In this document: positions 13,811 to 36,463 of the stretch, in pieces
How the letters are laid out: every line of letters starts with the position of its first letter
Numbering within the stretch: the stretch's first letter is position 1
Source: Thermoplasmata archaeon
GTDB taxonomy: Archaea > Thermoplasmatota > Thermoplasmata > Lutacidiplasmatales > UBA184
DNA: 64,000 nt
Assembly (NCBI GenBank): GCA_028864975.1
Contig: JAGWLG010000016.1
Span: 8,034 to 72,033 of the forward strand
Direction: 5' to 3'
Notes under the pieces: model-generated
Told to the model about the DNA's origin: nothing
The model's input: only the letters and a program-made list of their open reading frames with translations
Database searches by the model: none
Made by a program: the position numbers and the translations under genes

Positions 13811-13929
13811 GACCGGCCCGACCCCGAGAGGGACGACTCGACCGGAGCGGACGGAAGGCCCTTGGTTTATCTCGAGGAGGCGACTACCGAAGGATCGTTG
13901 TCCGCCGATAGCTCGCGGACCGCCGCACC

Positions 13930-15024: not shown

Positions 15025-15064
15025 AGGGCCGGGAGAACCTTGGAGCGCGTGGGGCGCGCGGCCG

Positions 15065-19443: not shown

Positions 19444-19534
19444 CTCCGTAAAAAGTGCTTGTCGGGTGGCTCATGGCCCCGCGTCGCCCTGCGACGCCCG
19501 AAGCGAGGTATACGCCGTGCGCCTCTTCATCGGC

Positions 19535-20545
19535 ATGCGCCACACGGCCCTCGTACGGGAGCTGTTGAGGTCGGGGGAACCCTCCATTCGATGGCGAACG
19601 CTCGTTCGCGTGCTCGGGGAGTCGCCTCGAACCCCTCGGGTCCGGGCCCTCGAGCGGGCCGTTCGGGCTTCCGCGCGCGTCCGAGCCCTGCTCTCCCACG
19701 CTTGGGCCCCGTACCGAGAGAACACGGCCCGTAGCGTCTACTACAAGTGGCAGGGGGTCCAGTGGGCCCTGGCCTCCCTCGCGGACGTCGGCCATCCTCG
19801 GGGAGACCGCAACCTCGGGGAGCTCCGGGACCGCATGCAAGGGCTCTGGACCCGTCCGTCCTTTCGACGTACCTACACGACGCGGACGAAGCTCGGCGGG
19901 TATGGCCGGCCCGCGGTGCCGGTGGTCCGAGGCCGTGCCCGACGGTGCGCCTCCCAGCAAGGCAACGCGCTGCTTTCGATCTGCCGGCTCGGACTCTGCG
20001 ATGACGGGACGAAGGAGCTCGCCTCCTTGCTGGTCGGATGGCAATGGCCCGACGGAGGGTGGAACTGCGACCGCGACCCGGGGGCCGACACGTCCTCGTT
20101 CATGGAGACACTGACCCCCATGCGAGGGCTCGCCGCTTTCGCGAAGGAGACCGGGGACATTCGCGCTAAGCAGGCCGCGCGACGAGCGGCAGAGGTCTTC
20201 CTCGAGAGGAGGCTCTTCCGTCGGCGATCGGACGGACGCATCATTCGACCCGAGTTCTGTCTCCTCCACTATCCCCTTTACTACCACTATGACCTCCTCG
20301 GCGGGCTCAAAGGCCTGGCGGAGCTCGGGCTCCTCTCGGACCCGCGGTGTCGCGAGGCCCTGGACCTTCTCGAGAGCAAGGAGCTGCCGACGGGTGGGTG
20401 GCCGGCCGAGGCCCGCTACTACCGCGTCTCGGAGGTCTTCCGGCCGGGCAGCGAGTTCGTCGACTGGGGCCCCGTGTCGGGGTCGAAGATGAACGAGTGG
20501 GTCACGACGGATGCGCTCTACGTCCTTCGAGAGGCAGGGCGCTAA
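19535..20545 (+). CDS. Prenyltransferase/squalene-cyclase-repeat (QW motif) alpha/alpha-barrel protein of unknown function
   Basis: LLVGWQWPDGGWNC and LLESKELPTGGWP repeats, plus YPLYYHYDLLGGL. ATG 19535 chosen because the upstream frame overlaps the divergent gene. Confidence 0.65.
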   Translation: MRHTALVRELLRSGEPSIRWRTLVRVLGESPRTPRVRALERAVRASARVRALLSHAWAPYRENTARSVYYKWQGVQWALASLADVGHPRGDRNLGELRDRMQGLWTRPSFRRTYTTRTKLGGYGRPAVPVVRGRARRCASQQGNALLSICRLGLCDDGTKELASLLVGWQWPDGGWNCDRDPGADTSSFMETLTPMRGLAAFAKETGDIRAKQAARRAAEVFLERRLFRRRSDGRIIRPEFCLLHYPLYYHYDLLGGLKGLAELGLLSDPRCREALDLLESKELPTGGWPAEARYYRVSEVFRPGSEFVDWGPVSGSKMNEWVTTDALYVLREAGR

Positions 20546-20653
20546 CCTCCCTCCTCGACCTGGCCACGCTGATTCGTGGGCCCTCGCGCGCGTCCACGAC
20601 CAGCGCGGAGTTTCCGGACGCAATCTCCTTGAGCGCACCGAATTGGCAGGAAC

Positions 20654-21583
20654 GTGCCCGTGCCCTCCTCCGGACGCGCGACCAAGGCTCGGAAGTCGGA
20701 CGTCGGGATCGTCAGCGCACTTCCCGAGCTGCGCCGTGTCTCCCCGGACGAGCGGGAACTGCAGGGTGCTCTGGAGACGCGAGGGCTTGTTGCCCGTCGT
20801 GTTGCATGGGACGCCACGAAGGTCGACTGGTCAAACTTTCGGCTCCTTGTCGTCCGCTCCACGTGGAACTACGTCCAACAGCGTGAGCGGTTCCTGCGCT
20901 GGGCGGAGAGGGCCCACCATGTGTCCGCCCTCTGGAACCCTTTGCGAACTCTTCGCTGGAACACCGAGAAGACCTACTTGCAGGACCTCGAACGGGCAGG
21001 GGTTGCGGTCATCCCTACACGTTGGGTCCGGGCGGACGAAGCCCTCGACCTCGCTTCGATCCGTCGGGCGACCCGTTGGGGCCGGCTGGTGGTGAAGCCG
21101 ACGGTGTCGGCAGGGGGATGGAGGACCTACCTCGTGGGGAGCGGCGATGAGGCACGCATCGAGCGTAGGGTCCTTCGCTCAAGACCTAGGGTGGACCTCA
21201 TGGTCCAGCCCTACCTGCGCTCGGTCGAGACCGTAGGGGAGATCGCTCTGATCTTCCTCGACGGCAAGTTCTCTCACGCGATCCGCAAGGAGCCGTTCTT
21301 GTCGGCCTCGAGGGTCTCGTTCGTCCCGCCGCGAGCCTACCCGAACGGCCGACAGAAGGCGCTGGGCCGGGCCGTGCTGAGAGCCGCGCCCGATAGGACG
21401 CTCTACGCCCGCGTCGACCTTCTGCGTGATGACGACGGCCGGTGGTGCGTCGGCGAGGCCGAGCTCACCGAACCCTACCTCTATCTCACGACGAGACCTG
21501 GTGCGGTCGAGGCGCTCGCCGCGGCGATCGAGCGCCGTCTCGATAGCGCAGTCAAGGAGAACACGACCAAACCGTCGACATAG
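20654..21583 (+). CDS. ATP-grasp ligase (RimK/glutathione synthetase-like, DcsG-like)
   Basis: VVRSTWNY, LRWNTEKTYL, VVKPTVSAG, MVQPYL, EIALIF, YARVDL, EAELTEP motifs. Confidence 0.85.
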   Translation: MPVPSSGRATKARKSDVGIVSALPELRRVSPDERELQGALETRGLVARRVAWDATKVDWSNFRLLVVRSTWNYVQQRERFLRWAERAHHVSALWNPLRTLRWNTEKTYLQDLERAGVAVIPTRWVRADEALDLASIRRATRWGRLVVKPTVSAGGWRTYLVGSGDEARIERRVLRSRPRVDLMVQPYLRSVETVGEIALIFLDGKFSHAIRKEPFLSASRVSFVPPRAYPNGRQKALGRAVLRAAPDRTLYARVDLLRDDDGRWCVGEAELTEPYLYLTTRPGAVEALAAAIERRLDSAVKENTTKPST

Positions 21584-21665
21584 GGTCGGTGAAGGAAAGA
21601 TTAACGGAGGACCGAGATACCGTCACGCCCCAGGCACGCCGACGGGTGGGCTAGGGTCCAAACCG

Positions 21666-22952
21666 ATGTGCGACGAATGCTCCTCCGAATCCGAGTGTCG
21701 ACACCCGACCTGTGCTTCCCAGGGGAACTCTTGCGCGTGCCGACTCCAGGGTCCCACGAAGTGCCCGACCTGCGGGCATGAATGTACCCCGTGGTGGTGG
21801 GGCATGGGGGTTGCCGAGGGCCCCGACTGGGTCCGGGACTTCCTGGGAGGAGTCGGGACGGAGAGCCCCGGGTTCGAGGAGTACCCCGCGACGAAGGCCC
21901 AGATCCTGGCTGCGTGGTCCTCGCGCATGCAGGATATCCTGTCGGACGGGGAAGCGACCCTGGACGACCCGCAGTGGCTCTCCACGCACCTGCCGGAGGG
22001 GACGTTCCAGGACCCGGGGGAGGTCTTCCTCGCGCTCTGCCCAGTGATCACCGGTCCCGCACTGGACGGTACTCGATGGGTGGGGAGCTCGCCGGTCGCG
22101 GCCCTGGCCAACGGGCAGCGTCTCGTGGTCCCCTCCGGACAGGTCGCGTTCCTCGTAGGCCCCGGTGGGCGGGTGCTCGACGCGTTGTCGCCGGGAGAGC
22201 ATGTCATTTCTCCCTCCACCGTGCCGCAAGCCGCCTCGGCGTCCCGTCCGCCTGCACCCGGGACCCGACGCTGCTCCTTCCATGCGTCCCCCCTGTTCTG
22301 TTACGCGGGGGACCTTGTCGGCGAGGTTCAGCACGCGACGCGTCCCCCGCCCGTACCCCCTGCGATGTTCCACGCCACCGTCCACTTCAGCTTGAGCGAC
22401 CCCGCCAAGGTCGCCCGTTCCCCGGCGGCGAAGGAGCTCCAGAACTCGAGCCCGACCCCCGCTCGCATGCTGTCGGCCGTTCTCGGTCCCCTGCTCGAAG
22501 GGCTCGACGCGTCGACCGTCAGCAACCACGCCAAGGTGGAGGCGTTGATACGCTCTGGACTCGATGGGGCAGGGCTCGGCGTGCGCTCCCTGACGTTCGC
22601 ACCCCTTGGACCGTACGGGATGCCTGCGCAGGCCGTCCTGGGGAGACCGCCGGGGATGTCGGCGGGACCCTCCGGGGGCATGCCTGCCGGCATTCCCCCC
22701 GAGGTGCTGGCCCGAATGCCCCCGCAGGCCCGCGCGATGATGGAAGAGAGGATGAGGGCGGCCATGGCCGCCCGGGCGGCGTCCGATGTTGGAGGAGCCC
22801 GCGGGGCGTCCGCTTCGCGACCTGGCCCCGGCTCGATGTACCCGGGAGCTCTGCCGGCAGGGCTCGTCGCCTGCCCGAGCTGCCAAGCTCCGAACCCGGT
22901 GACGATGACCGCCTGCCGCGCGTGCGGGAGACCTCTCGGCCCGACCCACTGA
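21666..22952 (+). CDS. Fusion protein: Cys-rich N-terminus, DUF2795-like domain, SPFH(Band_7_1)-like domain, C-terminal zinc ribbon
   Basis: 9 Cys in the first 40 aa; YPATKAQIL...LPEGTFQDPGEV; LVVPSGQVAFLV..G..LD.LSPGEH; CPSC..N...ACRACG. GAAAG-ATTAA promoter-like element at 21595-21604. Confidence 0.7.
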   Translation: MCDECSSESECRHPTCASQGNSCACRLQGPTKCPTCGHECTPWWWGMGVAEGPDWVRDFLGGVGTESPGFEEYPATKAQILAAWSSRMQDILSDGEATLDDPQWLSTHLPEGTFQDPGEVFLALCPVITGPALDGTRWVGSSPVAALANGQRLVVPSGQVAFLVGPGGRVLDALSPGEHVISPSTVPQAASASRPPAPGTRRCSFHASPLFCYAGDLVGEVQHATRPPPVPPAMFHATVHFSLSDPAKVARSPAAKELQNSSPTPARMLSAVLGPLLEGLDASTVSNHAKVEALIRSGLDGAGLGVRSLTFAPLGPYGMPAQAVLGRPPGMSAGPSGGMPAGIPPEVLARMPPQARAMMEERMRAAMAARAASDVGGARGASASRPGPGSMYPGALPAGLVACPSCQAPNPVTMTACRACGRPLGPTH

Positions 22953-23023
22953 CCTGGCCGCCCGCTCGGCCATCTCAGGGCCTTGGTGCCGGGTTCGGGC
23001 CCACCGCGCTAGGGGGCTCCCCG

Positions 23024-24757
23024 TCAGGGCCGGTAAGGGGGCGGAGGAGGGGGAGGGGCCGGTGGACCAGGAGGGAACGGGGGAGGAGCGACCGCGGGGG
23101 AAGGCGGAGGGGGCGCAAGCGACGGTGGCGGTGTCATGGGGCTGGAAGTAGATGGAGGCAAGGCCGAGGTCGCCGGGGGTGGGGCGTGGCGGGCCCTGAC
23201 CCGCCAGAGAAGGAGCACGACGACCAGGGCCACGACCACGATGGCCACGCCCGCCAGGATGTAGACCCCAGCGCTCCCGAGCCCGGCGATGCCGCCCGTG
23301 ACCGTGAGCGAGGTGCTTGCAGTGGCGCTCTGCCCTTTCGAGTCGGTCGCATAGACGGTGATCGAGTACGCCCCCGCGGTCGAGGGGGTGCAGCTCAGGC
23401 TCGCGGTGTTCGACGAGGTGCACCCGGGCGGGAGCCCTGTGTAGGAGTAACTGAGGGCTCCAGAACCTCCGGAGGCCGAGACCGATAGGGTCGTGGTCCC
23501 ACCCACGCTCACGGTGGCCGGGCTCGCGCCGAAGGAGGCGATGACCGGTCCGTTGCCCAAGCTCCCGTTCGGAGAGAGGATCGACAGGGTCCCATACTCC
23601 TGGTTCCCGACGTACACCGCCCCCGTACCCGCATCGTATCGCACGGCGTTCGGCTCGGTCCCGACCGGGGGGGTGGCCACGACCGCGTTCGTCGCGTCCG
23701 AGATGACGCTCACGTCGTTCCCGACCCAGTTCGCCACGATGACCTCGCTCGTGGCCGCGTCGAAGCCGAGGGCCATCGGGCTGACACCCACGGCGACCGA
23801 GGTCATGACCCGGTTGGTCGTGTCGGAGATCACGGTCACGTTGTTGGAGATGTCCTCCGCGACGAAGACCTCGCCCTTCCCCGGGTCGTAGGCCACCTCT
23901 TGGGGAGCGTTGGGCCCCACCGAGATGGTCGACACCAGCGCGTTCGTGGCGTCCGAGACCACGCTCACGCTGCCCGCCGAACAGGGAGGGGTCTGACAGC
24001 TCGAGCCCGAAACGAAGAGCTCGCTCTTCCCCGAGTCATACGCGAGCCCCTGCACGTACGTTCCCACATCGACGGTGGCTGTGACCGTGTTCGTGGCGTC
24101 CGAGATCACGCTCACGTTGTAGGTGGCCTGCTGCAGCACGAACACCTCCCCCTTCCCCGGGTCGTACGCAAGAAAGCCGGGCGGGTTCCCGATCGGGATC
24201 GACCTCACGACCGAACCGGTCGCAGCGTTCACCACCATGACATTGAGGCCGACCCCCACGAAGTACTCCCCCTTGGCCGTGTCGAAGGCGACCCCGCTCG
24301 CGCTACGTCCGAGCGAGACCGTCGAGGTCACGTGGTTGGTCGTGTCGGAGACGACGCTCATCAGACCGGAGCCGTTCTCGTCCGCCTCGAAGATGTCGCC
24401 CTGGGCCGGGTCGTAGGCGAGGTCGTCCGGAACCGCGGTGCACCCCGAGGGGATCCAGTTGCCCGGCTTCAGCGTGTTGTTGCAAAGGTCGAGGGTGTCG
24501 ACCACGCCCCACGAGTTGGCGCGGGGTCGAAGGGCGTCGCTGGTCGATGCCGCGTGCGAACGCACGATCGTTCCGCCCGAAAGGGGGGTCGAGCCCAACA
24601 CGACCCATCCTGCGCTAAGCGCGACGAAAGTCAGGAAGAGGACCACGCCCTGTCGAAGGACAGTGCAGGACCGGCCCTCACGAACTCGTCCTGTCGAGGT
24701 CCGGCCGGGAAGGTTCGTCGCATGGAGGGCTTGTGAGGTGCTGGTGTGTTCCATCAT
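23024..24757 (-). CDS. YVTN/YncE-type beta-propeller surface protein with one GLPPGC Ig domain, TM and Pro-rich tail
   Basis: Repeated AYDPGKGEVFV...NVSVISDATNTVTATVxVG; YTGLPPGC; TM then RVRARH. Start overlaps the upstream stop (ATGA). Confidence 0.9.
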   Translation of the reverse strand: MMEHTSTSQALHATNLPGRTSTGRVREGRSCTVLRQGVVLFLTFVALSAGWVVLGSTPLSGGTIVRSHAASTSDALRPRANSWGVVDTLDLCNNTLKPGNWIPSGCTAVPDDLAYDPAQGDIFEADENGSGLMSVVSDTTNHVTSTVSLGRSASGVAFDTAKGEYFVGVGLNVMVVNAATGSVVRSIPIGNPPGFLAYDPGKGEVFVLQQATYNVSVISDATNTVTATVDVGTYVQGLAYDSGKSELFVSGSSCQTPPCSAGSVSVVSDATNALVSTISVGPNAPQEVAYDPGKGEVFVAEDISNNVTVISDTTNRVMTSVAVGVSPMALGFDAATSEVIVANWVGNDVSVISDATNAVVATPPVGTEPNAVRYDAGTGAVYVGNQEYGTLSILSPNGSLGNGPVIASFGASPATVSVGGTTTLSVSASGGSGALSYSYTGLPPGCTSSNTASLSCTPSTAGAYSITVYATDSKGQSATASTSLTVTGGIAGLGSAGVYILAGVAIVVVALVVVLLLWRVRARHAPPPATSALPPSTSSPMTPPPSLAPPPPSPAVAPPPFPPGPPAPPPPPPPYRP

Positions 24758-27700
24758 GGTCCGGGGAGAGGGGGAGGCGGCGGGGCTGGAGGGTTCTCCG
24801 TCGGCAGAGGGGGAGGGCTCGCGCCGGGTCCGGGAGATGGTGCACTCGGAGCGGGAGGGGTCTTGGGTGCAGTTCCCGAGTCCGGCGTCCCCGCGGCGGG
24901 GGCATCGTCCGTCTTCCCCGGGGCCGTCTCACCGGCGGGAGATGCGGGCGCGGAGCCTTGGGACGAGGTAGAGGAACGGGGGCGTCGGGGTCGGCGGAGT
25001 CCGAGTACGACCAAGACCGCGCCCAAGACGATCGCGCCCCCGAGCACTAGGAGGATCCACAAGGTCGGCCCTTGGAACAGCGTTGAAGCTGTGGAGGAAG
25101 CCGAGGACACCACGAGGGACGTCGCGACGGTGACCGAGGAGCCCGCGCTGTCCGAGACCGCGGCGGAGATCGAGAACGTTCCACTCGCGCTGGGGGCACA
25201 CGAGACGTTGGCCCCGCTGGAAGGACAGCCGGAGGGTAGACCTGTCCAGACCACCGAGTAGGGGGCGAGCCCTCCGGAGACCTCCACCTTCCAGTCGACC
25301 GACCCGCCCGTGGCCGTCGAGGTCGGGGTCTCGACAAGGTAGGCATGGAGAGGGGCGGGCCCCACCGAGACCGACACGTTGGCTCCGGTCGAGTCGCCTT
25401 GGGAGTCGTTCGCCCAGACCTGGGCCGTGTAGCGACCGGAGGCGGCGTAGGTGTGCTGCGCGCTCGCGCCCACCCCGTGGGTCCCGTCTCCGAAGCTCCA
25501 GGCGAAGACGACCGGAGGCGCCCCTCCTTGGGCCGTCGCCTGGAAGGTCGTGGAGAAGGGAGCCGCCCCGGTGCTGGGCGTCGCTTGCGCGCTGACCGAG
25601 AGCGCCGCAGGGGCCGTCAGCACGCTCAGGGCGAGCGAGGCCGACTTGGCGACGATGCCGTTCGCGTCCGTGACGGTCACGTTGATCGCGAAGTTCCCCG
25701 GGGCGTTCGGGGTGCAGACGAGCAAAAGCGTGGAGGCGGATGGGCATCCTGGAGGGAGCCCCTTCCACACTTCCACCAACGGAGAGGTCCCACCCTCGAC
25801 GACCTGGGTGAGGGTCAGAGTGGAACCCATGACGGCGGGGTCCGGGCTGGCGACCGGGACCGCCAGCGTGGGTGCAGGGCCCACGACCACGGTGATCGGG
25901 GAGGTCGAAAGCGAGACCCCGTTCGAGTCCGTGACGTTGAGCGAGATGCTGTAGGTCCCTGGCGATGGGAAGTGGCAGGTCAGCACCTCGTCCGAGCCGC
26001 TGCAGACCCCCGCGCCCACGCCCCTCCAGAGGTCGGTGTAGGTCCCGGTGCCGCCCGAGGCGTTCGTCCACAGCGTGAACGATTGTTCGACGTCGACCTG
26101 GGTACGGTCCGCTCGAAGGGTCGGTCCGAGCACGAGCGCGGGGTCGACGGTCAGGGCCACGATCCCTCCGGCGAGCTCGGGGACCCCCCCGCTGGTGTTC
26201 GCCTCGTTGAAGATGGTGTAATTCCCCGCCGCCGTCGGAACGCAGGAGATCTTCGTTCCCATGAGGCCCGTGCAACCCGCCGGGAGGTTCTCCCAGGACT
26301 CGAGGACGGCTCCCGCGCCGCCCCCGCTGACCGAGGCGGAGAGCTGGACCGATTGCTGTGTCGCGTCCACGCTGGTCCGGTTGGCGATCGCTGGACCGGA
26401 GACGTTGAGGACCGGAACGGAGATGTTGAGGGCCGGTGCGAAGCACCAGGTGTCCTGGTAGGCGGTCGAGCCTCCAATGCCGCCGTAGAGGAGCGCGTAC
26501 CCGTCGGACGGGCTCGCGTCATAGGTCATGGCCGCGAGGTACCGGGCCATAGGATAGGGTGCCGTGTTCTGTACGCTCCAGGCGCCGCCCGCGAGGTAGA
26601 ACGCCTGGCCGGTCTGACCCCCCACGAGGAGTGTCTTGTTGTCCCGGGGGTCGAAGGTCATCGACGGATAGGCGATGACGACGCCCGTACAGCTCGGCTG
26701 GCACACCGCGGTCCAAGTGTCGTTGGAGAGGTCGAAGCGCCACGTGTCGTCCAGGGCGGTCGAGACGCCCCGCCCACCGTAGACGATCGCCCCGTGCTCG
26801 TTGCGGTCCCAGGTCGAGGCCGCGGCGGCCCGGGCCGGAGGGGAGGTGGCTGGGGTTTCCTGCGTCCAGGTCCCGTGCAGGAACGTCCAGGTCCCGGCGG
26901 TCGGATTCCCTGAGAGGTCGTTGCCGCCGAAGAGGACCAGAGGCCCTCCGGGGAAGGAGGGGGCGAGCGAAGGGAAGAAGAGCGCCGGGGGCGAGGTCGA
27001 GGGGGTGATGTTCGTCCAGGCCCCTCCTTGGAACGCCCAGGTGTCGGAAGCGAGGTGGCCGGTGAGAAGGTCCACTCCTCCGTACAGGATGGCCTCCCCG
27101 TCGGCCGCATCGTAGGCCATCGTGGACCCGAAGCGAGAGGGCGGAGAGTTCGATGCCGAGACGATGGACGGGGTGATGTTCGTCCAGGTCCCGTCCCGGT
27201 AGGTCCAGGTGGTCGGGAACAGGTCGTTCGTACCCGGAGTGAAGGCCACAACGTAGCCATCGGCGGCGTCGTCAGCCATCACCGTGAGGTCCGGGGTGGG
27301 GGGCAGGGACCCGGGGGGACCGAACTGGATCGACCAGGTGCCCGTCTTCCACGCCCAGAGGTTCGGGATCGGGCCCAACGTGAAGTTCAACTCGCCCCAC
27401 AGGAGCGTCTCCCCGGAGGGGTCCGCGGCGGCGGAGAGGAAGGAGCCGCCATACGGTAGTGGCGTCAGGGGGGACCAGGACGTGGTCGGGACCGGGGGCG
27501 TGAACACCCACATGTCCGAGTACTCTCCGCCGTTCGGAGCGAGCCCGCCCATGAGGGTGTCAGGTCCGGGGTTCCCCGCGATGGCGGCGAAGGCCCGGGC
27601 CCCTGGCGAAGGGACCTCCAGGTAGGTCAGGTTGTACCACCCCGTCGCGTTGAACATCCACGTGGCATTGGTGAAGGACGGGCCGAAGTCGCCGCCGAAG

Positions 27701-28623
27701 AGCACGTCGTCGGACCCGGGAAAGTCAAAGCCCAGCGTGGCCCCGAAGAGCGGCCCAGGGGTGACTGGGCCACAGGAGCCCTGTAAGCAGAGCTGCGTCC
27801 AGCCCGTGGCGAGACTGAAGGACCAGGTGTCGCCCATCACGGTCCAGGCCCCCGCCTCGACCTCGAGGCCCCCGTACAGGATGACCCCACTCCCAAAGGA
27901 TGTGGCGAGCGAGGACCACTCCCGCGGGGCCGGAGTGTTGTAGGGAGTGATGGACAGGGGGGTCAGGTTCTCCCACGCCCCCGCGGCGCTGAGACCCCAG
28001 GTGTCCCCCAGGACGTACCCTCCGGCCGAGACCCCTCCGAAGAGGACCATCAGGTGGTCGGCGGGGTCGTAGGCCATCACGGCAGAGTAGCGCGGGACCG
28101 GCGCGGTCGGGGAAGGAAGCACGGCCCAGGCCTGGGTGGTGGCGTCGTAGGTCCAGGTATCACCCTCCACCCCTCCGTTATCGGTGTACCCGCCGAAGAT
28201 GACGGTCGCGCTAAGGTCCGGGTCGTAGGCCATGCTCGCCGCGAACCGGGTCGCCGGCGCCCCGACGAGCCCCCAGGTGCCGGAGACGGCCGTCGAGGAG
28301 GGCCTGGAAGAGAGCGAAGAGGAGAAGGATGAGGCGGTCGGAGGGAACGCCATCGATGCGGGCCAGCCGGGGGGGCGCACCATCCCGGAGGTCCCCTGCG
28401 CGGGCGGTCGGACGACCTTGGAGAGCGCGGCAGAGACTGGGCTTCCCGGAACGGGAAGGTTCTCCCCTGGGGCGAGAGCCCTCGGGGAGAAGTGGCCGGG
28501 CTCCCTTGGGAGGGCTACGGCCGCAAATGCGTGACCGGCCGGGGTCGCGCCAGGCAGAAGGAGCAGCGACAGGACGCCGAGTACAAGGAGCAGCGCGGGT
28601 CGTGCAGCGCGCATGCCGCTCAT
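24754..28623 (-). CDS. Surface protein: 12 Kelch-like repeats, 4 GLPxGC-type Ig domains, PKD, TM, Pro-rich tail
   Basis: Signal peptide; MAYD...LFGG...DTW repeats; WSFGDG PKD; TM then RRPRRPR. ATGA overlaps at both ends. Confidence 0.9.
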   Translation of the reverse strand: MSGMRAARPALLLVLGVLSLLLLPGATPAGHAFAAVALPREPGHFSPRALAPGENLPVPGSPVSAALSKVVRPPAQGTSGMVRPPGWPASMAFPPTASSFSSSLSSRPSSTAVSGTWGLVGAPATRFAASMAYDPDLSATVIFGGYTDNGGVEGDTWTYDATTQAWAVLPSPTAPVPRYSAVMAYDPADHLMVLFGGVSAGGYVLGDTWGLSAAGAWENLTPLSITPYNTPAPREWSSLATSFGSGVILYGGLEVEAGAWTVMGDTWSFSLATGWTQLCLQGSCGPVTPGPLFGATLGFDFPGSDDVLFGGDFGPSFTNATWMFNATGWYNLTYLEVPSPGARAFAAIAGNPGPDTLMGGLAPNGGEYSDMWVFTPPVPTTSWSPLTPLPYGGSFLSAAADPSGETLLWGELNFTLGPIPNLWAWKTGTWSIQFGPPGSLPPTPDLTVMADDAADGYVVAFTPGTNDLFPTTWTYRDGTWTNITPSIVSASNSPPSRFGSTMAYDAADGEAILYGGVDLLTGHLASDTWAFQGGAWTNITPSTSPPALFFPSLAPSFPGGPLVLFGGNDLSGNPTAGTWTFLHGTWTQETPATSPPARAAAASTWDRNEHGAIVYGGRGVSTALDDTWRFDLSNDTWTAVCQPSCTGVVIAYPSMTFDPRDNKTLLVGGQTGQAFYLAGGAWSVQNTAPYPMARYLAAMTYDASPSDGYALLYGGIGGSTAYQDTWCFAPALNISVPVLNVSGPAIANRTSVDATQQSVQLSASVSGGGAGAVLESWENLPAGCTGLMGTKISCVPTAAGNYTIFNEANTSGGVPELAGGIVALTVDPALVLGPTLRADRTQVDVEQSFTLWTNASGGTGTYTDLWRGVGAGVCSGSDEVLTCHFPSPGTYSISLNVTDSNGVSLSTSPITVVVGPAPTLAVPVASPDPAVMGSTLTLTQVVEGGTSPLVEVWKGLPPGCPSASTLLLVCTPNAPGNFAINVTVTDANGIVAKSASLALSVLTAPAALSVSAQATPSTGAAPFSTTFQATAQGGAPPVVFAWSFGDGTHGVGASAQHTYAASGRYTAQVWANDSQGDSTGANVSVSVGPAPLHAYLVETPTSTATGGSVDWKVEVSGGLAPYSVVWTGLPSGCPSSGANVSCAPSASGTFSISAAVSDSAGSSVTVATSLVVSSASSTASTLFQGPTLWILLVLGGAIVLGAVLVVLGLRRPRRPRSSTSSQGSAPASPAGETAPGKTDDAPAAGTPDSGTAPKTPPAPSAPSPGPGASPPPLPTENPPAPPPPPLPGP

Positions 28624-31600
28624 GCTCCAGAGCCTCCCTGCGCAGAGCCGCCCTGCGGGGAAGGAACCGTAGCGGGGGCGGATGCGGGCCCGGGAGAGGG
28701 AGGGGACGAGGGGGCGGCTTCTCCTGCGGCCTCACCGCGAGCGGCTCCCGCGGAGGGGCTTGCGGGCGGGGAGGGAGGGGTGGCCGCGGGCCCTTCAGCG
28801 CTCCGCTCCCCACTCTCGGCCGGAGCGGCTTCGGGCTTGGAGGAGGATCCGCCGGATCTGCCCCGGCGCGGGCGCCACCACCAGACGGCGACGTTGGCCG
28901 CAGCCACCGCCGCAAGCCCGACGAGCAACAGGAGCTCCAGGAGGAAGGCGCTCAGGCCGAGACCGGGGGACGACACCACGGTGATCTTGATCGAGCCCGC
29001 GGCCGAGATCCCCTGGGCATCGGTGATCACGACCGTGACCCAATAGGTGCCTGCCGAGGGGAACGTGCAGGAGAGCGAGCTCACGGCGGAGGAAGCGCAT
29101 CCGCTCGGCAGCCCTCCCCACGCGAAGGTGTAGGGGGAGACCCCGGCTTGCCCCGAGGCTGACAGGCGGACCGAGGAGCCTGCGACGACCGGGCTCGCGC
29201 TTGCCGAGAGGGTCGAGAGGGCGAGGCGAGGAAGGACCTCGATCGCGACCGGGCGCTCCGAGACGGACCCGCCCCGGGCGTCCTCGACCGTCACCCCGAC
29301 GGAGTAGTTCCCCGGAGCGGAGGGGGTGCAGACGAGGAGCGGGGTGCTGACGGAGGTGCAGCCCGGAGGAACGCCGGACCAGAAGTACGAGAAGGAGGAG
29401 TTCCCCACGGCTCCCCCTCCCGGAGCGGCGAAGCTCTCGGACATCCCGACCTCGATCGGCGTCCGCGAGGCGTTCACGGCCCCCGCCGCGGGGGGCGCGA
29501 CGACCTGGAACTCGAGCGTGGGGCTCGTGGCCGTCGAACCGCGACTGTCCGTGACCCGGAGCGAGATGCCGTAGCTCCCTGCGGCGGCGGGAGTACAGTT
29601 CACCGACGGAGCGTTGAGGGAAACACAGCCGGGCGGAAGGCCTGACCAGAAGTACTGGAGGGGCCCGTTCACGGACTCGGCCGTCGCACGGAAGGTCACG
29701 GGGGCCCCCGAGTCAACGGAAGGAGGGCTGGCAGAGATCGGTCCCACGGCGGTCAGGGTGAGGAAGGCCGTGGAGAGGTTCTGCCAGGGGAGGCCGGGGT
29801 CCCCGTTCTTCGTCTCTCCCACGAGGGTGGCCACGCCCGAGGACGAGACCGCGAGCCGCACCTGGGTCAAGTTCCCCCAGGCAAGGTCGCGCACGAGCGC
29901 CGCGGAGGACCCATCGACCAGGTAGACGAGGACGCCGTCCGGGGCCTGCCCGGCGACCACCCAGGTGCCGCCCGATAGGGCGACCTGAAGCGTCGAGAGG
30001 TTCTCTGGGAGCGAGACGTTCGAGAGGACCTGCCCTGCGGGGTCGTCCACCTGGAGCAGGGTCGTGGAGTTGTTCCGATAGAGGAAGGCGAGGTCCCCAG
30101 GGCTCCCCGCGACGTGCGTGACGTAGGAGAGATTGAACCCGCGCACCGTGGGGACCGTCCAGGGCGACCCGCTCGTCATGTTGATGACCGAGTAGTTCCC
30201 GTCGACGCCCCGCATCGCGACGAGCCCGCTCGGGCAGTCGAAGGAGACGATGTTCCCCCCGAGCGGAGCACTCACCTGCGCAAGGACGGAGCCGCTCGAG
30301 AGGTCCTGCTCGACGAGGGTGCCTCCGTGTCCAAGCAGGGAAGGAGCGTCCAGGTGCACGACCCGCGTGTCCGTGCCGCACGCACCCGCGGTATAGGAGA
30401 GCGGGAACGCTCCGGTCGAGAGCGTTGTCGCGGGGCCCCAGGTCCGGCTCGTCGGGTCGAAGCGCGCGGCCTGGAGCTCAAGGCTCGCGACCTGCGCTGG
30501 CCCGGCGACCGTCGTCCCGGCATCGGGGAGCGCGTCCCAGAGGGCGAGGAGAGCTCCTCCGCCCAAGTTGACGACGCGAGGGTTGAAGGCGACCTCCCCC
30601 GGCGGGAGCGGGAGATTCTCCGGGCTCACGGTGCGGTTCGCGGGGTCGATCTGAAGGAGCCCCAGCGTGAGCCCCAGGTTGCGGGGCTTCGAGACGTTGT
30701 CCGTACCGTAGAGCAGTGCGTCGGTGGCGGACCCTCCGGCCATGTCGAAGGTCCCCCCGGGGTAGATGTCGTTCATGAGGGGCCCTTCGGTCGAACCCGG
30801 GACCCAACGCAGCGACTGGTAGCCGGAGATGTTGTAGTAGCGGGGGCCGACGACGAAGGAATTGCTCGACGCGCCCGCCGCGGGCCCGGTCGCTATGCCC
30901 GGGGTCGGGTTGCCTTCGGACCAGATGACCCCGGACCAAAGGTTGTCCGTCCAGCTCCAGAAGAGGACGCTCACGGTAACGAAGATCGTTCCGATGAGCT
31001 GCATCCCCCGAAGGTTGGGCTGGACGTTCTGGAGGTAGATGTCGAACTCGAGGGTACCCCCCATGCTGATGCTCGCCACCAGGAGCGAGAACCCGAGCGC
31101 GATCGAGATCGCGAGCGAGATCAGGGCCTGGACCTTCTGGAGGACGACAGGTAACCAGCCCAGGAAGCACCCCGTGGGGCAGACCGGAGAGGGGTTCGTC
31201 TGATTGAAGAAGAGCCCGATCGTCGCGCCTAGCGAGACCGCGATGGTCATCGTGAACCCGACAGTGCCGAGCGGGCCCAGGCTGATCCCGTAGATCGGGA
31301 ACGTGACCGACGCCTTGATCACGACCCCCATCGAGATCGAGAAGTTGGTGAGCACCAAGCTCCCCACCTGGGTGAGCCCGTTGTAGTACTGTTCGAACTG
31401 GAACTTGGCCTGGGCCGTGAAGCTCTCGGTGATCGTGAAAGAGATGCCCGCGACCTTCCCTAACGGGAATTGGATCGAGGCCCCCGCCGTCAACGTAACT
31501 TTGCCGAAGGAGCTGATCGAGAGCGCGACGTTCGCCCGGGGGATGATCGAGGCCGTGCCCGCGACCGGGTCCGGTAAGGTCGCGCCGGTCAAGGCGGCGA

Positions 31601-34001
31601 TGTTCATCGAAAGTGTCGCGTTGATGAAGTAGGTCGCGTTGAACGCGAGGATCTGCCCGTGCCCACCCTGTTGGCCCCAGGAGAGCGTGGTGATGGTCGC
31701 GGTGGTGGCCGCCATGAGCGCCGGGATCCCCTCCAGGAGGGGCTGGAGCATGCTGCCAGGGTCGACCGCGCCGTACTGGCCAGAGAGCCCGACCGGGAAG
31801 TTGGCCAGATGGTGCTTGCCGTAGGTCGCGTTCAGGTCCAGGGTCTCGTAGACCGTCGCGCACGCGCTCGAGCTTCCCGCAGGACCGAGCTGTACGCTGA
31901 ACTCGATCGAATCGTCCAGGGGGAGTGCGGAGAGCTCGGACGGGGTGAAGGTGGCATAGTCGACCCAGACCCCATCCCAGTAGACCGCGGCGATGGGAAG
32001 GTTGGCGTGCTCCTGCACCAAGACCGCCTCCGCGTCGATCGCGACCCACGCGGAAGGGCTCGAGGGACTGTACGCCTCCGCCCAGGTGGCGACCCCGAAG
32101 TTGTCGGTCAGGTCGTTGATGCCGACCGGGTCGAGGAGGCCTAGGTCGACCCCCTTCCACCAAACAGGGTAGCGGTCGTAGTAATGGGTGATCAGGGGCG
32201 AGGGGTTGACGATGAGGGGGTCCCACCCTGAGATCCCTTGCTCCCCCGCGCTGTCGGTCACCGCGACGGAGACGTTGAAGAAGTTGCCATGCGGGCCGGG
32301 ACAGCTCGTGGAGAAGGTGGGGACGCAGATGACCCGGCTGTGCAGGTTGTCGAAGATCGTGTTGACCGAGCACCCCACGGGGTAGAACCCTCCCTGCCAG
32401 GTTCGGTTGTACCATACGAAGCGCCCGGTTCCGCCGATGACGGTAACGTTGAGGGAGAGGGTATGCCCCTGCGCGACGGGGTCCGGGTTGGCATAGATCT
32501 CAGGAGTGACCGGCAGCCAGAAGCGCCAGGTATCCTGCAGCTCGTCCACGAAGCAGTAGCCCACCACGGGGCAGTCGGCGCCTCCGAAGAGGATCACGCA
32601 GCCGTGGGGCGGGGTAGGAGCTCCGCAGTCCGAGGGGTTGGGGTCGTAGGACATCAAGGGCTCGACCCGCTGGTCCGGCTGGGGTTTCGGGCCGGTCCCC
32701 AGTCCCGCGAAGGAGGTCACGTCGATCCATGCGCTACTGATGGGCTGCACCTGGTCCCCATAGTAGGACCATGTGGTGTTCTCCGCCGACGCGTTGGAGT
32801 AGGCCCCTCCGAAGAGGAGGAGGAAACGGTTGGCCTCGTCAAAGGCGTAGCCCGCGTCCTGAAGGTCCAGGAGCTGGTTGGAGCAGAACCCGGCGGAGGG
32901 AGGACACCCCGGCCCGAGGGTCGCCCACCCGCTGGGGGTCATCTCGTAGGTCGCGAACCCGTATCCCCCGCACGGCGCGGGTCCGCTCCAGGGGACGTTC
33001 GGCGGAGCAAAGCAGATCTGGGGGGTCACCAGGACGGCGTGGCCGAGGACAGGGTCGTAGAAGATGTCCTGAGTTCCGACCACGTTCATCCGACCCGCGA
33101 TCGGTCCCGCGGCCACCGAGATGTCCTCCCAGCCGTGGAAGGACGGCATGTACTCCCATGTCGTCTGGAGGGACTCGACCTCGACGCAAGGGATGCCGCA
33201 CTGCCAGCTTTGATTGGCCGGGATCCCAGAGACCGCGAGCAGGCAAGGGGAGAGCGTGAGGCAATCCGAGCCGTTCGGGTCGTAGATCAGTCCGAGCGCG
33301 GTCCACGGTCCGTGCATCATGGTCACGCTCGCTGACTCGTTCGTCCAAGCGCCGGCAGCGTACTGCCACTCGTACTCCGAGGCGTTGGCCCGCCCCATCA
33401 TCAGCACGAGGCATCCGCTCGTGCCGACGAAGCAGGAGGTTCCCGGGGTTTCCGGGTCGAAGACCATCGTGGGGCTAGGAGCGTTGAAGGGCGTGAGCGG
33501 TGGGGAGGCGATGGCGAGCTTGGTCCACTGACCTGCGGAGAACGTCCACGTCTCGTCGGCCCCCGTCGTCCAGTTCCAGGTCACGAGGACGAGATAGCCG
33601 TCGGCCCTGTCGTAGGCCATGGTCCCCAGTCCCGAAGCAGAGTCGGGGGGGGCGTGGAGCGGGGAAACGGGTTGCCAGGGGCTCGAGGAGGAGATGAGCG
33701 GCATCCCGACCCCCTGGGTCCCGACACATGCGGGGAGCCATCCCGTGGGATAGGTGCACCCGTCCGATGTGGTGGTGCGGGCGGAGGGACCCGAGGACGA
33801 CGCGTCCGCTCCTCCACTCCCCGATGAAGCGTGGGATCTCCCATTGTTGGCGAGTCCTTGCTCGTTCGGCAAGGAGGACCCGGAGGCCTGGACCGCGGGA
33901 GCGAGCCCGGGGAGCAGCAGCAGGACCACCGCGGTCACCGCGACCGAGGCGAGCATGGTCCGTCGCGAGCGACCTTTCGGCGTGTCCCGCCCTCCGTTCA
34001 T
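28620..34001 (-). CDS. Large surface protein (1793 aa): Cys-looped Kelch-like propeller, Ig domain, long amphipathic beta-strand region, second propeller-like region, 3 GLPxGC Ig domains, TM
   Basis: N-terminal SRRTML plus h-region; six YDP/FD blades; WSGLPPGC repeats; TM then RPRRGR. Confidence 0.85.
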   Translation of the reverse strand: MNGGRDTPKGRSRRTMLASVAVTAVVLLLLPGLAPAVQASGSSLPNEQGLANNGRSHASSGSGGADASSSGPSARTTTSDGCTYPTGWLPACVGTQGVGMPLISSSSPWQPVSPLHAPPDSASGLGTMAYDRADGYLVLVTWNWTTGADETWTFSAGQWTKLAIASPPLTPFNAPSPTMVFDPETPGTSCFVGTSGCLVLMMGRANASEYEWQYAAGAWTNESASVTMMHGPWTALGLIYDPNGSDCLTLSPCLLAVSGIPANQSWQCGIPCVEVESLQTTWEYMPSFHGWEDISVAAGPIAGRMNVVGTQDIFYDPVLGHAVLVTPQICFAPPNVPWSGPAPCGGYGFATYEMTPSGWATLGPGCPPSAGFCSNQLLDLQDAGYAFDEANRFLLLFGGAYSNASAENTTWSYYGDQVQPISSAWIDVTSFAGLGTGPKPQPDQRVEPLMSYDPNPSDCGAPTPPHGCVILFGGADCPVVGYCFVDELQDTWRFWLPVTPEIYANPDPVAQGHTLSLNVTVIGGTGRFVWYNRTWQGGFYPVGCSVNTIFDNLHSRVICVPTFSTSCPGPHGNFFNVSVAVTDSAGEQGISGWDPLIVNPSPLITHYYDRYPVWWKGVDLGLLDPVGINDLTDNFGVATWAEAYSPSSPSAWVAIDAEAVLVQEHANLPIAAVYWDGVWVDYATFTPSELSALPLDDSIEFSVQLGPAGSSSACATVYETLDLNATYGKHHLANFPVGLSGQYGAVDPGSMLQPLLEGIPALMAATTATITTLSWGQQGGHGQILAFNATYFINATLSMNIAALTGATLPDPVAGTASIIPRANVALSISSFGKVTLTAGASIQFPLGKVAGISFTITESFTAQAKFQFEQYYNGLTQVGSLVLTNFSISMGVVIKASVTFPIYGISLGPLGTVGFTMTIAVSLGATIGLFFNQTNPSPVCPTGCFLGWLPVVLQKVQALISLAISIALGFSLLVASISMGGTLEFDIYLQNVQPNLRGMQLIGTIFVTVSVLFWSWTDNLWSGVIWSEGNPTPGIATGPAAGASSNSFVVGPRYYNISGYQSLRWVPGSTEGPLMNDIYPGGTFDMAGGSATDALLYGTDNVSKPRNLGLTLGLLQIDPANRTVSPENLPLPPGEVAFNPRVVNLGGGALLALWDALPDAGTTVAGPAQVASLELQAARFDPTSRTWGPATTLSTGAFPLSYTAGACGTDTRVVHLDAPSLLGHGGTLVEQDLSSGSVLAQVSAPLGGNIVSFDCPSGLVAMRGVDGNYSVINMTSGSPWTVPTVRGFNLSYVTHVAGSPGDLAFLYRNNSTTLLQVDDPAGQVLSNVSLPENLSTLQVALSGGTWVVAGQAPDGVLVYLVDGSSAALVRDLAWGNLTQVRLAVSSSGVATLVGETKNGDPGLPWQNLSTAFLTLTAVGPISASPPSVDSGAPVTFRATAESVNGPLQYFWSGLPPGCVSLNAPSVNCTPAAAGSYGISLRVTDSRGSTATSPTLEFQVVAPPAAGAVNASRTPIEVGMSESFAAPGGGAVGNSSFSYFWSGVPPGCTSVSTPLLVCTPSAPGNYSVGVTVEDARGGSVSERPVAIEVLPRLALSTLSASASPVVAGSSVRLSASGQAGVSPYTFAWGGLPSGCASSAVSSLSCTFPSAGTYWVTVVITDAQGISAAGSIKITVVSSPGLGLSAFLLELLLLVGLAAVAAANVAVWWWRPRRGRSGGSSSKPEAAPAESGERSAEGPAATPPSPPASPSAGAARGEAAGEAAPSSPPSPGPASAPATVPSPQGGSAQGGSGA

Positions 34002-34174
34002 CTAGGGTCCTTCTAGGACGCCCGTGCCCCTGCGGGATGGTCCCCAGGTGGCGCGTCCGCCCTGACCAGTAAGGGTTCACCTCGGTCTTAGATGAATGTC
34101 CAGAAGAAATGAACAAAAGTGCCAGCGGCGCCGGCCTCCCCCCTTGGCACGAGAAGGAATGCCGGTGGGGAGAG

Positions 34175-35191
34175 TTACGTCCTATCCTTTCGGAAAGTGA
34201 GGGACCGAGCGGGACGCCGCACCTGCGGCACAAGGGCGCGTTGTCGATGGCGGGAAGAACGCCGGTCTGGTCTCGGAAGCGAGGCCCGGTGCCGGGCGAT
34301 GTACGGGAGCAGGGCCTCGAAGCGGTCGGAGACCCCGTCGACGAGCTCCATCTGGGACATCAGGAGACCCGGCATCTCTGCGATGGACTCGGCGAGGTGG
34401 GTGACCATCGATAAGTTCGGTAGGATGAGCCGGTAGATCTCGAACTCGACCCAGACCCCGGCGTAGGTCATCCAGGGGTCGAGCTCGCGGATGACCGCTG
34501 AGCGCGAGGCGTCCTTCGAGGGTCCCGGAGCATAGGCGACCAGGAGCTCCGCCATGAGCCCGTGGTCCAGGGCCCGGTAGTTCATCCTCGGGAAGGTCAT
34601 GAGCGCCCCTCCTGCGACGAGCTTCGCGACACGTCGTTTGAGCGTGCGGATGGGAACGCGCAGGTCCTCCGAAAGCGCACGGTAGGAGCCAAAGCCGTCC
34701 GGGACAAGGTGGGCGATGAGCTCCCACTCCGCTTCGTTCATCCGGACCCCGCAGGGGGGGTGATGCACGAGCGTGTAGGTCCCCCGCGGGCACCCGGCGA
34801 CCTGGTCGATCTCTGAGAGCAAGTGCTGCATCCCCGCGTCGTCCACGGCGACCAGTCCGAGACCCAAGAGAGGACCGTGGAAGTTCTCGAAGAAGACGAC
34901 GCCGGCGACCTCGCTCAGTCGCTCGATCACCTGGTGCCGGCGAGGACCTTGAGGGGTCTGGAGCGTGTAGGACCCGGAGACGAGGCCCAGGGCCGAGGGG
35001 TTGACGTAGACCCGGATCCCCTGGAGGAAGCCCGCCCGCGTCATGCGGAGGACCCGGTTGCGGACCGTGCCGGCCGAAACGCCGAGCTTCCGGGCGAGGG
35101 TCCGGTGGGATGAGGTCAGCTTCGGATTGGCCGGCCAGATGGTCCCTCCCTGGACCAGTTCCCGCAGGAGACGGATGTCCAGACGGTCCAT
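34175..35191 (-). CDS. Lrp/AsnC-like transcriptional regulator with two winged HTH modules
   Basis: MDRLDIRLLREL...LARKLGVSAGTVRNRVLRM..GFL and a second HTH, SYRALSEDLRVPIRTLKRRVAKL. Confidence 0.85.
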   Translation of the reverse strand: MDRLDIRLLRELVQGGTIWPANPKLTSSHRTLARKLGVSAGTVRNRVLRMTRAGFLQGIRVYVNPSALGLVSGSYTLQTPQGPRRHQVIERLSEVAGVVFFENFHGPLLGLGLVAVDDAGMQHLLSEIDQVAGCPRGTYTLVHHPPCGVRMNEAEWELIAHLVPDGFGSYRALSEDLRVPIRTLKRRVAKLVAGGALMTFPRMNYRALDHGLMAELLVAYAPGPSKDASRSAVIRELDPWMTYAGVWVEFEIYRLILPNLSMVTHLAESIAEMPGLLMSQMELVDGVSDRFEALLPYIARHRASLPRPDRRSSRHRQRALVPQVRRPARSLTFRKDRT

Positions 35192-35392: not shown

Positions 35393-36412
35393 TCACGAGG
35401 GGAGAGCGCGGGCCTCGATCAGGTCGAACCCGCGGTCCGTGGTGAGGACACGGGAGAGCGAGAACCCACCCGCTCCCAGGAGGGTGCGCCACTCCCGCTC
35501 GGTGCGTTCACGCCCTCCGTTCATCACCATCATCATCAGGTCGCGCCAGAGCACGGGTGCGGTGGCGTGCTGCTCTGGGAGGACGCTTTCGACCAGCAAG
35601 AGGGTACCTTCCGAGCCCATCGCCCTACGGCAGTTCGCGAGCAAGAGACGGGCCTTGTCATCGGGCCAGTCGTGGAGGATCCTCGACATCACGTAGAGGT
35701 CTCCTCCGGGGGGGATGAACTCAAGAGCCGAGCCTGCACGGATCTCGCATCGGTCCGCCACGCCAGCTCGCTCGAGGGTTTCGGGGGCGTGCTCAACGAC
35801 CCCTGGAAGGTCGAAGAGGATGCCGCGCAGCTTGAGATGGGAGCGAAGCGTCCGAGCGAGGAGGTCCCCCACCCCGCCACCCACGTCGACCATCACGTGG
35901 TAACGCTCCAGTTCGTACCCCTCGACCGCCTCCGCCGCGGCCGTAACCGTCCCGGCCATGGCACGGTTGAACGTCCCTCCTGCGTCCGGATGCCGTGCGT
36001 AGTAGTCGAAACAACCCATCCCGAACAGGTGGTCGAATGCGGTCTCGCCCGTTCGGACGGTGTGGAGCAGGTCCCCGAAGGCCCGGTACGAGTCTTCGCC
36101 TTGGAACAGGGCGAAGTCGTTCATGGACGCAGGGGCGTCGGTCCTCAGGAGCTCCCCCACCTCGGCGAGGCCCACGCGGCCCGACGCATCCATGGTGAAG
36201 ACCCCGAACGGCACGAGCGCTCTCAGAACGCGCCGCAGTGGGTCCGGCTCGGCCCCCACTTCCTTCGCCAGCACCGTCACGTCCTTGGGTCCCGAGGCGA
36301 GGTGATCGGGGACACGCAATCTTGCCACCACGTAGATGGCCTGCGTCACCCGGTACCCGCTGGCGAGCCGGAGGAGGGTGGCCCGAGGCGGTTCGTTCGA
36401 TCCCAAGGTCAT
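35393..36412 (-). CDS. SAM-dependent O-methyltransferase (Methyltransf_2 with dimerisation domain)
   Basis: TQAIYVVARLRVPDHL, VDVGGGVG, LFDLP.V, ILHDWPD motifs. Confidence 0.92.
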   Translation of the reverse strand: MTLGSNEPPRATLLRLASGYRVTQAIYVVARLRVPDHLASGPKDVTVLAKEVGAEPDPLRRVLRALVPFGVFTMDASGRVGLAEVGELLRTDAPASMNDFALFQGEDSYRAFGDLLHTVRTGETAFDHLFGMGCFDYYARHPDAGGTFNRAMAGTVTAAAEAVEGYELERYHVMVDVGGGVGDLLARTLRSHLKLRGILFDLPGVVEHAPETLERAGVADRCEIRAGSALEFIPPGGDLYVMSRILHDWPDDKARLLLANCRRAMGSEGTLLLVESVLPEQHATAPVLWRDLMMMVMNGGRERTEREWRTLLGAGGFSLSRVLTTDRGFDLIEARALPS

Positions 36413-36463
36413 GCCACTTGCACCGCTCCGCGACACTTCAACGTGCCGTCGGGGCTGGAGGCG

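Follow-up and report, generated by a model that had tools for sequence, protein, structure and literature searches.

A conserved pair of surface-protein genes with a linked regulator, a variable third gene and an unannotated barrel-like module in a Thermoplasmata archaeon

Introduction

Among the described systems, the surface-layer protein 1L0Q of Methanosarcina mazei, in which a YVTN beta-propeller is combined with a PKD domain, is one of those closest to the proteins dealt with in this article. These proteins are encoded by three consecutive genes, here designated P1, P2 and P3, that lie on the minus strand of a 64,000-nucleotide (nt) stretch of the genome of a Thermoplasmata archaeon (contig JAGWLG010000016.1, positions 8,034 to 72,033), hereafter called “the window”; in the handles used below, in which G denotes a genome, C a contig and L a locus, the window corresponds to G000:C54:8034-72033. 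Like 1L0Q, the three proteins share the plan of a propeller head mounted on a PKD/Ig stalk at what is predicted to be an archaeal surface, and in the case of P3 the likeness extends to the sequence. Unlike 1L0Q, all three appear to be anchored at their tail by a transmembrane helix followed by a Pro-rich cytoplasmic tail, the heads of P1 (Kelch-like) and P2 (Kelch) are not of the YVTN type, and P1 contains an additional module of ~600 residues.

A second term of comparison is provided by gene pairs subject to translational coupling. According to Huber et al. (PMC10666635), coupling by termination and reinitiation requires overlaps or very short spacers, 4-nt overlaps being needed for it, and such overlaps are enriched among the subunits of heteromeric complexes. 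P1, P2 and P3 resemble these pairs in being co-directional and in displaying the 4-nt ATGA overlap that represents the commonest overlap class; on the other hand, coupling was demonstrated there with Haloferax and E. coli pairs, whereas here we infer it from sequence and conservation.

Finally, a part of P1, folded as a beta-meander, has a predicted geometry resembling that of outer-membrane barrels, namely those of the autotransporters Hbp, EspP and BrkA, which carry Ig-repeat passengers, and those of CymA and OmpG (Z 10–12.6; template-modelling score, TM-score, 0.38–0.43). As in autotransporters, a long Ig/PKD array and a putative binding head are joined in one polypeptide; unlike autotransporters and porins, P1 is archaeal, lacks sequence homology to them, ends in an alpha-helical C-terminal anchor and has hydrophobic stripes far longer than a membrane belt. 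An operon of propeller/PKD surface proteins is of a kind known in archaea, and what appears to be new is the conserved and presumably coupled gene pair with its regulator, together with the unannotated barrel-like module of P1. Within the search terms used, no paper was found on a conserved P1–Kelch cassette or on archaeal transmembrane beta-barrels.

A conserved gene pair and a variable third position

An earlier note, made from the letters of the window, had described three open reading frames (ORFs) running from 34001 to 28620 (1793 amino acids, aa; P1), from 28623 to 24754 (1289 aa; P2) and from 24757 to 23024 (577 aa; P3), joined by two ATGA stop/start overlaps and encoding different heads on a common stalk, transmembrane segment and Pro-rich tail. 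This description holds: the three frames are open, both junctions read ATGA, and the diversity of the heads (Kelch-like with Cys-containing insertions plus a beta domain in P1, double Kelch in P2, YVTN in P3) is borne out by profile and sequence matches, while the PKD-type WxGLPxGC motif (3 copies in P1, 2–3 in P2, 1 in P3), a hydrophobic C-terminal helix with Arg/Lys directly behind it and a tail rich in Pro recur in all three. A hydrophobic signal is found at each N-terminus, and sequons for N-glycosylation are present in P1 (31), P2 (20) and P3 (5). These features indicate a topology in which the proteins are exported by the N-terminal signal and anchored by the C-terminal helix, with the Pro-rich tail inside the cell and the propeller heads borne on PKD stalks; surface display and glycosylation would be in keeping with it.

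The conservation of this arrangement was assessed by searching 40 related genomes, 24 from the same family and 16 from other families, with the middle region of P1 (residues 560–1400). The region is present in 11 of the 40, all of them within the family (11/24 as opposed to 0/16), and these 11 loci, together with two usable ones (L040 and L041) of the three found in metagenomes, make up the 13 loci compared. In every one of them a Kelch-type, tail-anchored protein begins at the stop of the P1-type gene or within 11 nt of it, a relationship maintained down to ~29% identity, and every downstream ORF has a signal peptide at that very start. An ATGA or GTGA overlap joins the two genes in eight loci (G001, G002, a contig of G019, G003, G005, G020, G024 and G015), the remaining five (G022, G017, G012, L040 and L041) having gaps of 1–11 nt. 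Within the genus, the gene following P1 is the ortholog of P2 (63–67% identity). In G005 P1 is followed by a single 1937-aa ORF (L015, G005:C29 ~6959-12772) that comprises an extra Kelch propeller protein and a P2-like protein; these are separate neighbours in G020 and G015, a difference suggestive of gene fusion or fission inside the cassette.

The third position behaves differently from this pair. A same-strand YVTN gene follows the pair in none of the 13 loci. In G001 and G002, gene 3 is instead the ortholog (74–79% identity) of a BNR-like/Big_1 protein that in the window lies at 15562-19443, and it follows after a gap of ~90–108 nt; in G003 a third gene is absent; in the present genome, three plus-strand genes (19310-22952) separate P3 from the BNR-like gene. 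The loci compared indicate that this position is held by different genes in different species. In the metagenome locus L041 (29% identity), a YVTN-type gene is found on the opposite strand, convergent to the Kelch partner (features 5465-6394 and 13407-15335, the regulator and the YVTN-type gene, respectively).

The earlier note had proposed synteny in relatives as a check on its idea of one co-expressed unit and had named, as an outcome that would speak against it, orthologs scattered singly among relatives. The adjacency of the P1-type and the Kelch-type gene in 13/13 loci lends good support to such a unit for the first two genes; scattering is what was found for the third, which is missing from the position throughout and has its relatives elsewhere, so that a fixed unit of three genes is not supported.

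The regulator and the elements upstream of P1

The gene directly upstream of P1, on the same strand, encodes a protein matching the AsnC-type helix-turn-helix (HTH) family PF13404 (37.8 bits compared to a cut-off of 27), with two matching stretches at relaxed E-values. Since no C-terminal RAM/AsnC_trans ligand-binding domain was matched by any Pfam family at E-values up to 5, the designation tandem AsnC-type HTH protein suits it best. Homologs of this regulator lie beside the P1-type gene in five of the 13 loci: G001, G002 and G003 (68–70% identity), G017 (49%) and L041 (43%); in the last the orientation is divergent and not co-directional.

The spacer of 173 nt between regulator and P1 contains a 15-nt box, TGGCACTTTTGTTCA, which is found with 0–2 changes in G000, G001, G002, G003 and G017, that is, in five of nine cassettes (four of the eight others), within spacers that have otherwise diverged. 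It is unique in the genome when at most one mismatch is allowed. A second element, TCTAAGACC (TCTATGACC in relatives), located 17 nt downstream of the box, is shared by G001, G002 and G003 and partially by G017. Between 22500 and 34600, merely two AT-rich patches emerge as 20-nt windows with 13/20 A+T, one internal to P2 and the other upstream of P1 (34086-34115) and adjacent to the box, the latter being the sole such patch near the operon; none was found ahead of P2 or P3. The box is probably a promoter or operator element.

Other signals along the operon are few. There is no run of five or more T or A across 22500-34600, which implies that no obvious oligo-T terminator follows P3. A sigma-70 promoter scan returned 0 promoter-like sites and an intrinsic terminator scan 3 terminator-like sites compared to 3.6 expected, neither scan being designed for archaea; no Rfam match was obtained at the gathering threshold between 22000 and 35500, and a search for tandem repeats yielded only five arrays, all short and of low copy number.

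The proposed arrangement and how ordinary its parts are

The reading that we favour, to which we assign a probability of roughly 0.6, is that the locus represents a regulator-linked operon of membrane-anchored surface glycoproteins whose conserved core consists of two genes, the products of which, P1 and its Kelch partner, work jointly, P3 being a lineage-specific addition. One transcript would most likely start in the spacer downstream of the regulator, where the box and the AT-rich patch are located, and extend across all three genes as far as the convergent one ending at 22952. Ribosomes terminating on P1 would use the 4-nt overlap to reinitiate on P2, and P3 may be reached from P2 by a similar route. 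P1 and the Kelch partner would probably form a heteromer or a two-part device for binding at the cell surface, with the variable Kelch-like head of P1 as its ligand-facing tip and the conserved beta-meander and propeller as its working core. P3, on the other hand, would be a YVTN surface protein of the usual sort, of which the genome contains dozens, placed at the 3′ end of the operon in this lineage only and co-expressed with the pair without being a fixed subunit. Because gene pairs with such overlaps are enriched for heteromeric complexes, as stated in PMC10666635, a P1–P2 complex is plausible by analogy. A complex prediction for residues 784–1400 of P1 and the second Kelch propeller of P2 (8-row alignments, one domain pair) gave a score of 0.00, which speaks neither for nor against binding.

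Several points weigh against this reading. The partner of P1 is not strictly one-to-one, for in the genus g3 P1 is separated from the closest relative of P2 by an additional Kelch gene of ~850 aa. The 15-nt box was not found in G005, G020, G015 and G022, and instead of a promoter it might be the regulator gene's terminator, since it forms the T-run of a hairpin located at 34135-34121, just after that gene. The P2/P3 overlap is as tight as that between P1 and P2, so that in this organism the synthesis of P3 may well keep pace with that of the others. The single transcript, its promoter and the coupling, like the roles of the P1, P2 and P3 heads, are inferred. Finally, a 4-nt overlap is common in this genome and by itself no marker of a complex: in a crude survey of coding-like ORFs throughout the genome, the 864 close co-directional pairs include 95 with an ATGA overlap and 172 with an NTGA overlap of any kind, so that on their own the ATGA overlaps of the locus are ordinary and not beyond chance.

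These last figures lead to the alternative that survives best, namely that the three proteins are independent adhesins made from one transcript, separate members of a large family each having its own ligand and not assembling, the adjacency of P1 and the Kelch gene reflecting common regulation only. The design is shared throughout the genome: at least 27 ORFs contain the strict WxGLPxGC motif and 244 are tail-anchored according to a crude screen (ORFs of at least 400 aa with a C-terminal helix and basic residues), so that the common stalk and tail argue for nothing specific. Moreover, the tail-anchored ORFs form 24 close tandem pairs, 9 of which overlap by RTGA, and both the changing third position and the different evolutionary rates of the heads (see below) agree with proteins going separate ways. 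What this alternative does not lead one to expect is the adjacency with near-zero spacing that persists in 13/13 loci down to ~29% identity while the neighbours change, random tandem adhesins being unlikely to behave in this way; the enrichment of short overlaps in heteromeric complexes (PMC10666635) also argues against it. On balance, we hold independent adhesins to be rather improbable. Seven further RTGA-overlapping tandem pairs of tail-anchored, surface-like ORFs were noticed (e.g., C32:116798-121549, C63:9536-13384 and C73:48232-53394), which makes coupled surface-protein pairs a recurring arrangement.

P1 and its beta-meander module

The head of P1 appears related to that of its partner, residues 81–560 matching a Kelch profile of the P2 type (hhalign probability 94.7%, E 5.6e-8, 275 columns), while its Pfam Kelch_3 score (16.3 bits) stays under the cut-off of 22; P1 contains 30 Cys residues altogether. 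Its PKD domains are recognized with 62.1 bits compared to a cut-off of 23.5 (PF00801/PF18911). No Pfam family covers residues 546–1400. An AlphaFold2 (AF2) model of residues 560–1400, made from an 8-row alignment, has a mean predicted local distance difference test (pLDDT) score of 57.6; structural comparisons by VIA-align place the propeller contained in this region close to CylK (Z 21.3), to the PLL lectin (Z 21.0) and, with Z ~20, to integrin alpha propellers.

The domains of P1 evolve at different speeds. Compared to G001 and G002 of the same genus, identity amounts to 47–48% in the head, 84–85% in the Ig-like domain, 86% in the beta-meander and 71% in the propeller; within the genus the head is the fastest-evolving ectodomain and the beta-meander the most conserved part of P1. 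Evolution is much quicker at the distal tip than in the core, as would be expected of a ligand-facing or antigen-like surface.

The beta-meander module (residues 784–1045), when modelled alone with AF2 from an 11-row alignment, reaches a pLDDT of 69.9 and a predicted template-modelling score (pTM) of 0.61, with ten strands of 9–31 residues. In an all-against-all comparison by VIA-align, all 50 matches listed are outer-membrane or mitochondrial barrels with Z values descending from 12.6 to 8.6 at rank 50, to be judged against the stated background of the program (best Z 7–8, ~4–5 at rank 50); the best are CymA (Z 12.6, root-mean-square deviation 4.7, 193 residues aligned), OmpG (Z 11.4) and the autotransporter Hbp (Z 11.0). 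Foldseek gave no match at E ≤ 1e-3, its weaker rows consisting of pore-forming toxins of the hemolysin/leukocidin type (E 0.009–0.04, TM-score only 0.13–0.16) and of autotransporter barrels (TM-score 0.38–0.43). Nothing was found at E ≤ 1e-3 in a library of viral structures, the module profile obtained 0 hits at E ≤ 1 among the sequences of the PDB, and neither this profile nor Pfam revealed a sequence relation to a known outer-membrane protein or toxin family.

The strands of the module obey a strict two-residue alternation, in which a hydrophobic face (mean Kyte-Doolittle value 1.4–3.6) is opposed to a face in which Ser, Thr, Gly, Asn and Gln abound; charged residues number only 13 out of 209, and the alternation is maintained across 72 near-full-length family members. 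The hydrophobic stripes extend over 16–31 residues per strand (8–16 alternate positions), two to three times the belt of a bilayer, and so do not form the belt of about one bilayer thickness typical of outer-membrane proteins. Since the stripes go well beyond one bilayer, a hydrophobic-cored barrel, a sandwich or a lipid-binding groove is, as far as the model goes, at least as likely as a pore.

These data bear on a second alternative, according to which the module is a membrane-active beta-barrel, the first in an archaeon, that would insert as a pore or lipid conduit into a second envelope layer or into the membrane of a contacted cell, being aimed or gated by the Kelch partner made in step with it and by the targeting heads, under the control of an Lrp-type switch. 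It draws on the exclusive resemblance of the model to transmembrane barrels among the matches listed, on the weak Foldseek matches, on the conserved, strongly hydrophobic and nearly uncharged strand face, and on the double membranes reported in PMC4243693 for a few archaea including a Thermoplasmata methanogen. To be set against this are the excessive length of the stripes and the non-pore folds just mentioned, which fit at least as well, the lack of a sequence link to outer-membrane proteins or toxins, the shallow 11-row alignment with its intermediate confidence values, the fact that a structure search matches geometry and not membrane location, and the anchor that P1 already possesses in its C-terminal helix. 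We consider membrane activity of this kind quite unlikely.

Whatever its fold, the module defines a family. A word-indexed protein search detected 4 proteins, and a search of the ESM Atlas returned unnamed clusters with a best feature score of 0.85, a lead at most; when 1.84 billion cluster representatives were searched with the profile, 86 proteins reached E ≤ 1e-3 and 74 of them E ≤ 1e-10. Among the 65 members of at least 1000 aa, a hydrophobic segment is present at the C-terminus in 47 and at the N-terminus in 38. The 26 of the 86 members scanned with Pfam carry heads as diverse as Kelch and other propellers, BspA-type leucine-rich repeats, the NosD beta-helix and Ig/PKD/fn3 arrays, two of them contain a dockerin, and in none does a Pfam family cover the module. 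Among 301 sampled genomes of the phylum the module occurs in 4, the present one included. In a quick tree the P1 orthologs constitute one clade (13 rows, support 100), with the copies of G012, G017 and G022 in another.

P2, P3 and the two junctions

The Kelch repeats of P2 are recognized by PF24681 in two stretches (129 bits compared to a cut-off of 50) and by Kelch_4 (76.8 compared to 21.6), and its stalk by PKD_4 (65.7 compared to 27). A GGGAGG motif is located 9 nt upstream of its start.

P3 matches 1L0Q over residues 130–331 (phmmer, E 1.9e-25), while in Pfam both YNCE (20.7 bits compared to a cut-off of 27.1) and PKD (19.7 bits) remain below their cut-offs, yet the GLPPGC motif is present. 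The start of P3 is the first start codon of the open frame; its signal-like helix begins at residue 36 only and one paralog aligns from residue 9, so the true start may be later than the one called. The junction with P2 reads ATGATG, the second ATG also permitting a 1-nt TGATG overlap, and no GGGAGG-like motif, i.e., no obvious Shine-Dalgarno sequence, precedes the start. P3 closes the unit and is convergent with the plus-strand gene ending at 22952. Heads of its type are encountered by the dozen in each genome, the best in-genus matches being 38–51% identical and partial, and its best full-length relatives, in G020, are 43–49% identical and placed in unrelated contexts. A recent duplication as the origin of P3 was ruled out, the best paralog in this genome being only ~41% identical.

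The third alternative, a surface apparatus of three subunits in fixed ratio, which the earlier note had put forward on the strength of the two exact ATGA overlaps in series and to which the absence of an AT-rich, promoter-like patch before P2 and P3 (22500-34600) and a possible dependence of the Shine-Dalgarno-less P3 on coupling would lend some weight, is very unlikely, in view of a coupling that fixes no particular ratio, a P3 that is at this position in 0/13 loci and has scattered relatives but no close ortholog, a gene 3 that is another one in G001 and G002 and missing in G003, and a stalk and tail shared genome-wide.

The locus in its genomic setting

The positions of the features discussed are collected in Table 1. 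The assembly comprises 3.6 Mb in 124 contigs with 67% G+C, and no tRNA gene was found in the window. Third-position G+C is 0.87 in P1 and 0.85 in P3, values expected of genuine genes in the host genome and thus fitting real coding genes.

Table 1. Features of the locus, with positions in the window
Feature	Position	Strand	Content and basis
P1, 1793 aa	28620..34001	-	signal peptide, Cys-rich Kelch-like head, Ig-like domain, unassigned stretch, beta-meander, seven-bladed propeller, 3 PKD domains, transmembrane helix, Pro/Ser-rich tail
P1 Kelch-like head with Cys-containing insertions, ~residues 81-545	32367..33761	-	hhalign against Kelch profile; domain identities
P1 beta-meander module, residues 784-1045	30867..31652	-	about ten antiparallel strands of 9-31 residues; no Pfam family
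P1 seven-bladed beta-propeller, ~residues 1065-1400	29802..30809	-	AF2 block with pLDDT ~80-89; VIA-align matches
P2, 1289 aa	24754..28623	-	signal peptide, two Kelch propellers, ~5 PKD domains, transmembrane helix, Pro-rich tail
P3, 577 aa	23024..24757	-	long N-region with signal-like helix, YVTN propeller, one PKD-like domain, transmembrane helix, Pro-rich tail
P1/P2 ATGA overlap	28620..28623	-	GGAGCATGAGC; RTGA overlap kept in 8/13 related loci
P2/P3 ATGA overlap	24754..24757	-	CCATGATGG; no counterpart in relatives
Tandem Lrp/AsnC-type HTH regulator, 338 aa	34175..35191	-	directly upstream of P1, same strand; Pfam
15-nt box	34110..34124	-	TGGCACTTTTGTTCA; in the 173-nt regulator-P1 spacer; 0-2 changes across G000, G001, G002, G003, G017
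Second element	34084..34092	-	TCTAAGACC (TCTATGACC in relatives); 17 nt downstream of the box; alignment of box flanks
BNR-like/Big_1 surface protein, 1293 aa	15562..19443	-	orthologs 74-79% identical are gene 3 after P2 in G001 and G002
Three genes without Pfam families	19310-22952	+	between P3 and the BNR-like gene; frame-specific G+C plot

The last of the three plus-strand genes downstream of P3 has a weak zinc-ribbon match at its C-terminus. Homologs of two of these genes are located across the cassette, on its far side, in G002 and G003, which means that the flank has been rearranged among species. Upstream of the regulator, the minus strand encodes an O-methyltransferase (35393-36436; PF00891, E 3.4e-46) that is present also in G002 (65% identity).

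Four other giant tail-anchored surface proteins are encoded in the window, at 5537-13810 (+), 41357-47584 (-), 60357-63965 (+) and 15562-19443 (-); their sizes are 2757, 2075, 1202 and 1293 aa, respectively, and they bear Kelch, YVTN or BNR-like heads on long PKD/Big_1 stalks. The cytoplasmic tail of the 1202-aa protein ends with a zinc-ribbon-like motif (Cys-x2-Cys ... Cys-x2-Cys).

Significance

Cultured Thermoplasmatales have no cell wall, its place being presumably taken by membrane glycoproteins (PMC4243693). In relatives of these organisms, one evolutionarily kept pair of genes with a regulator of its own, standing out among more than 100 look-alike genes, would offer a concrete target for the question of how giant surface proteins may cooperate. 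The module of P1 is rare and unannotated (86 representatives among 1.84 billion) and is always met in surface proteins of large size, most of them anchored at the tail, whose heads are interchangeable. If its barrel shape reflects an activity on membranes or lipids, it would bear on the existence of beta-barrel membrane proteins in archaea; if it does not, the module would still represent a new structural domain of archaeal envelopes.

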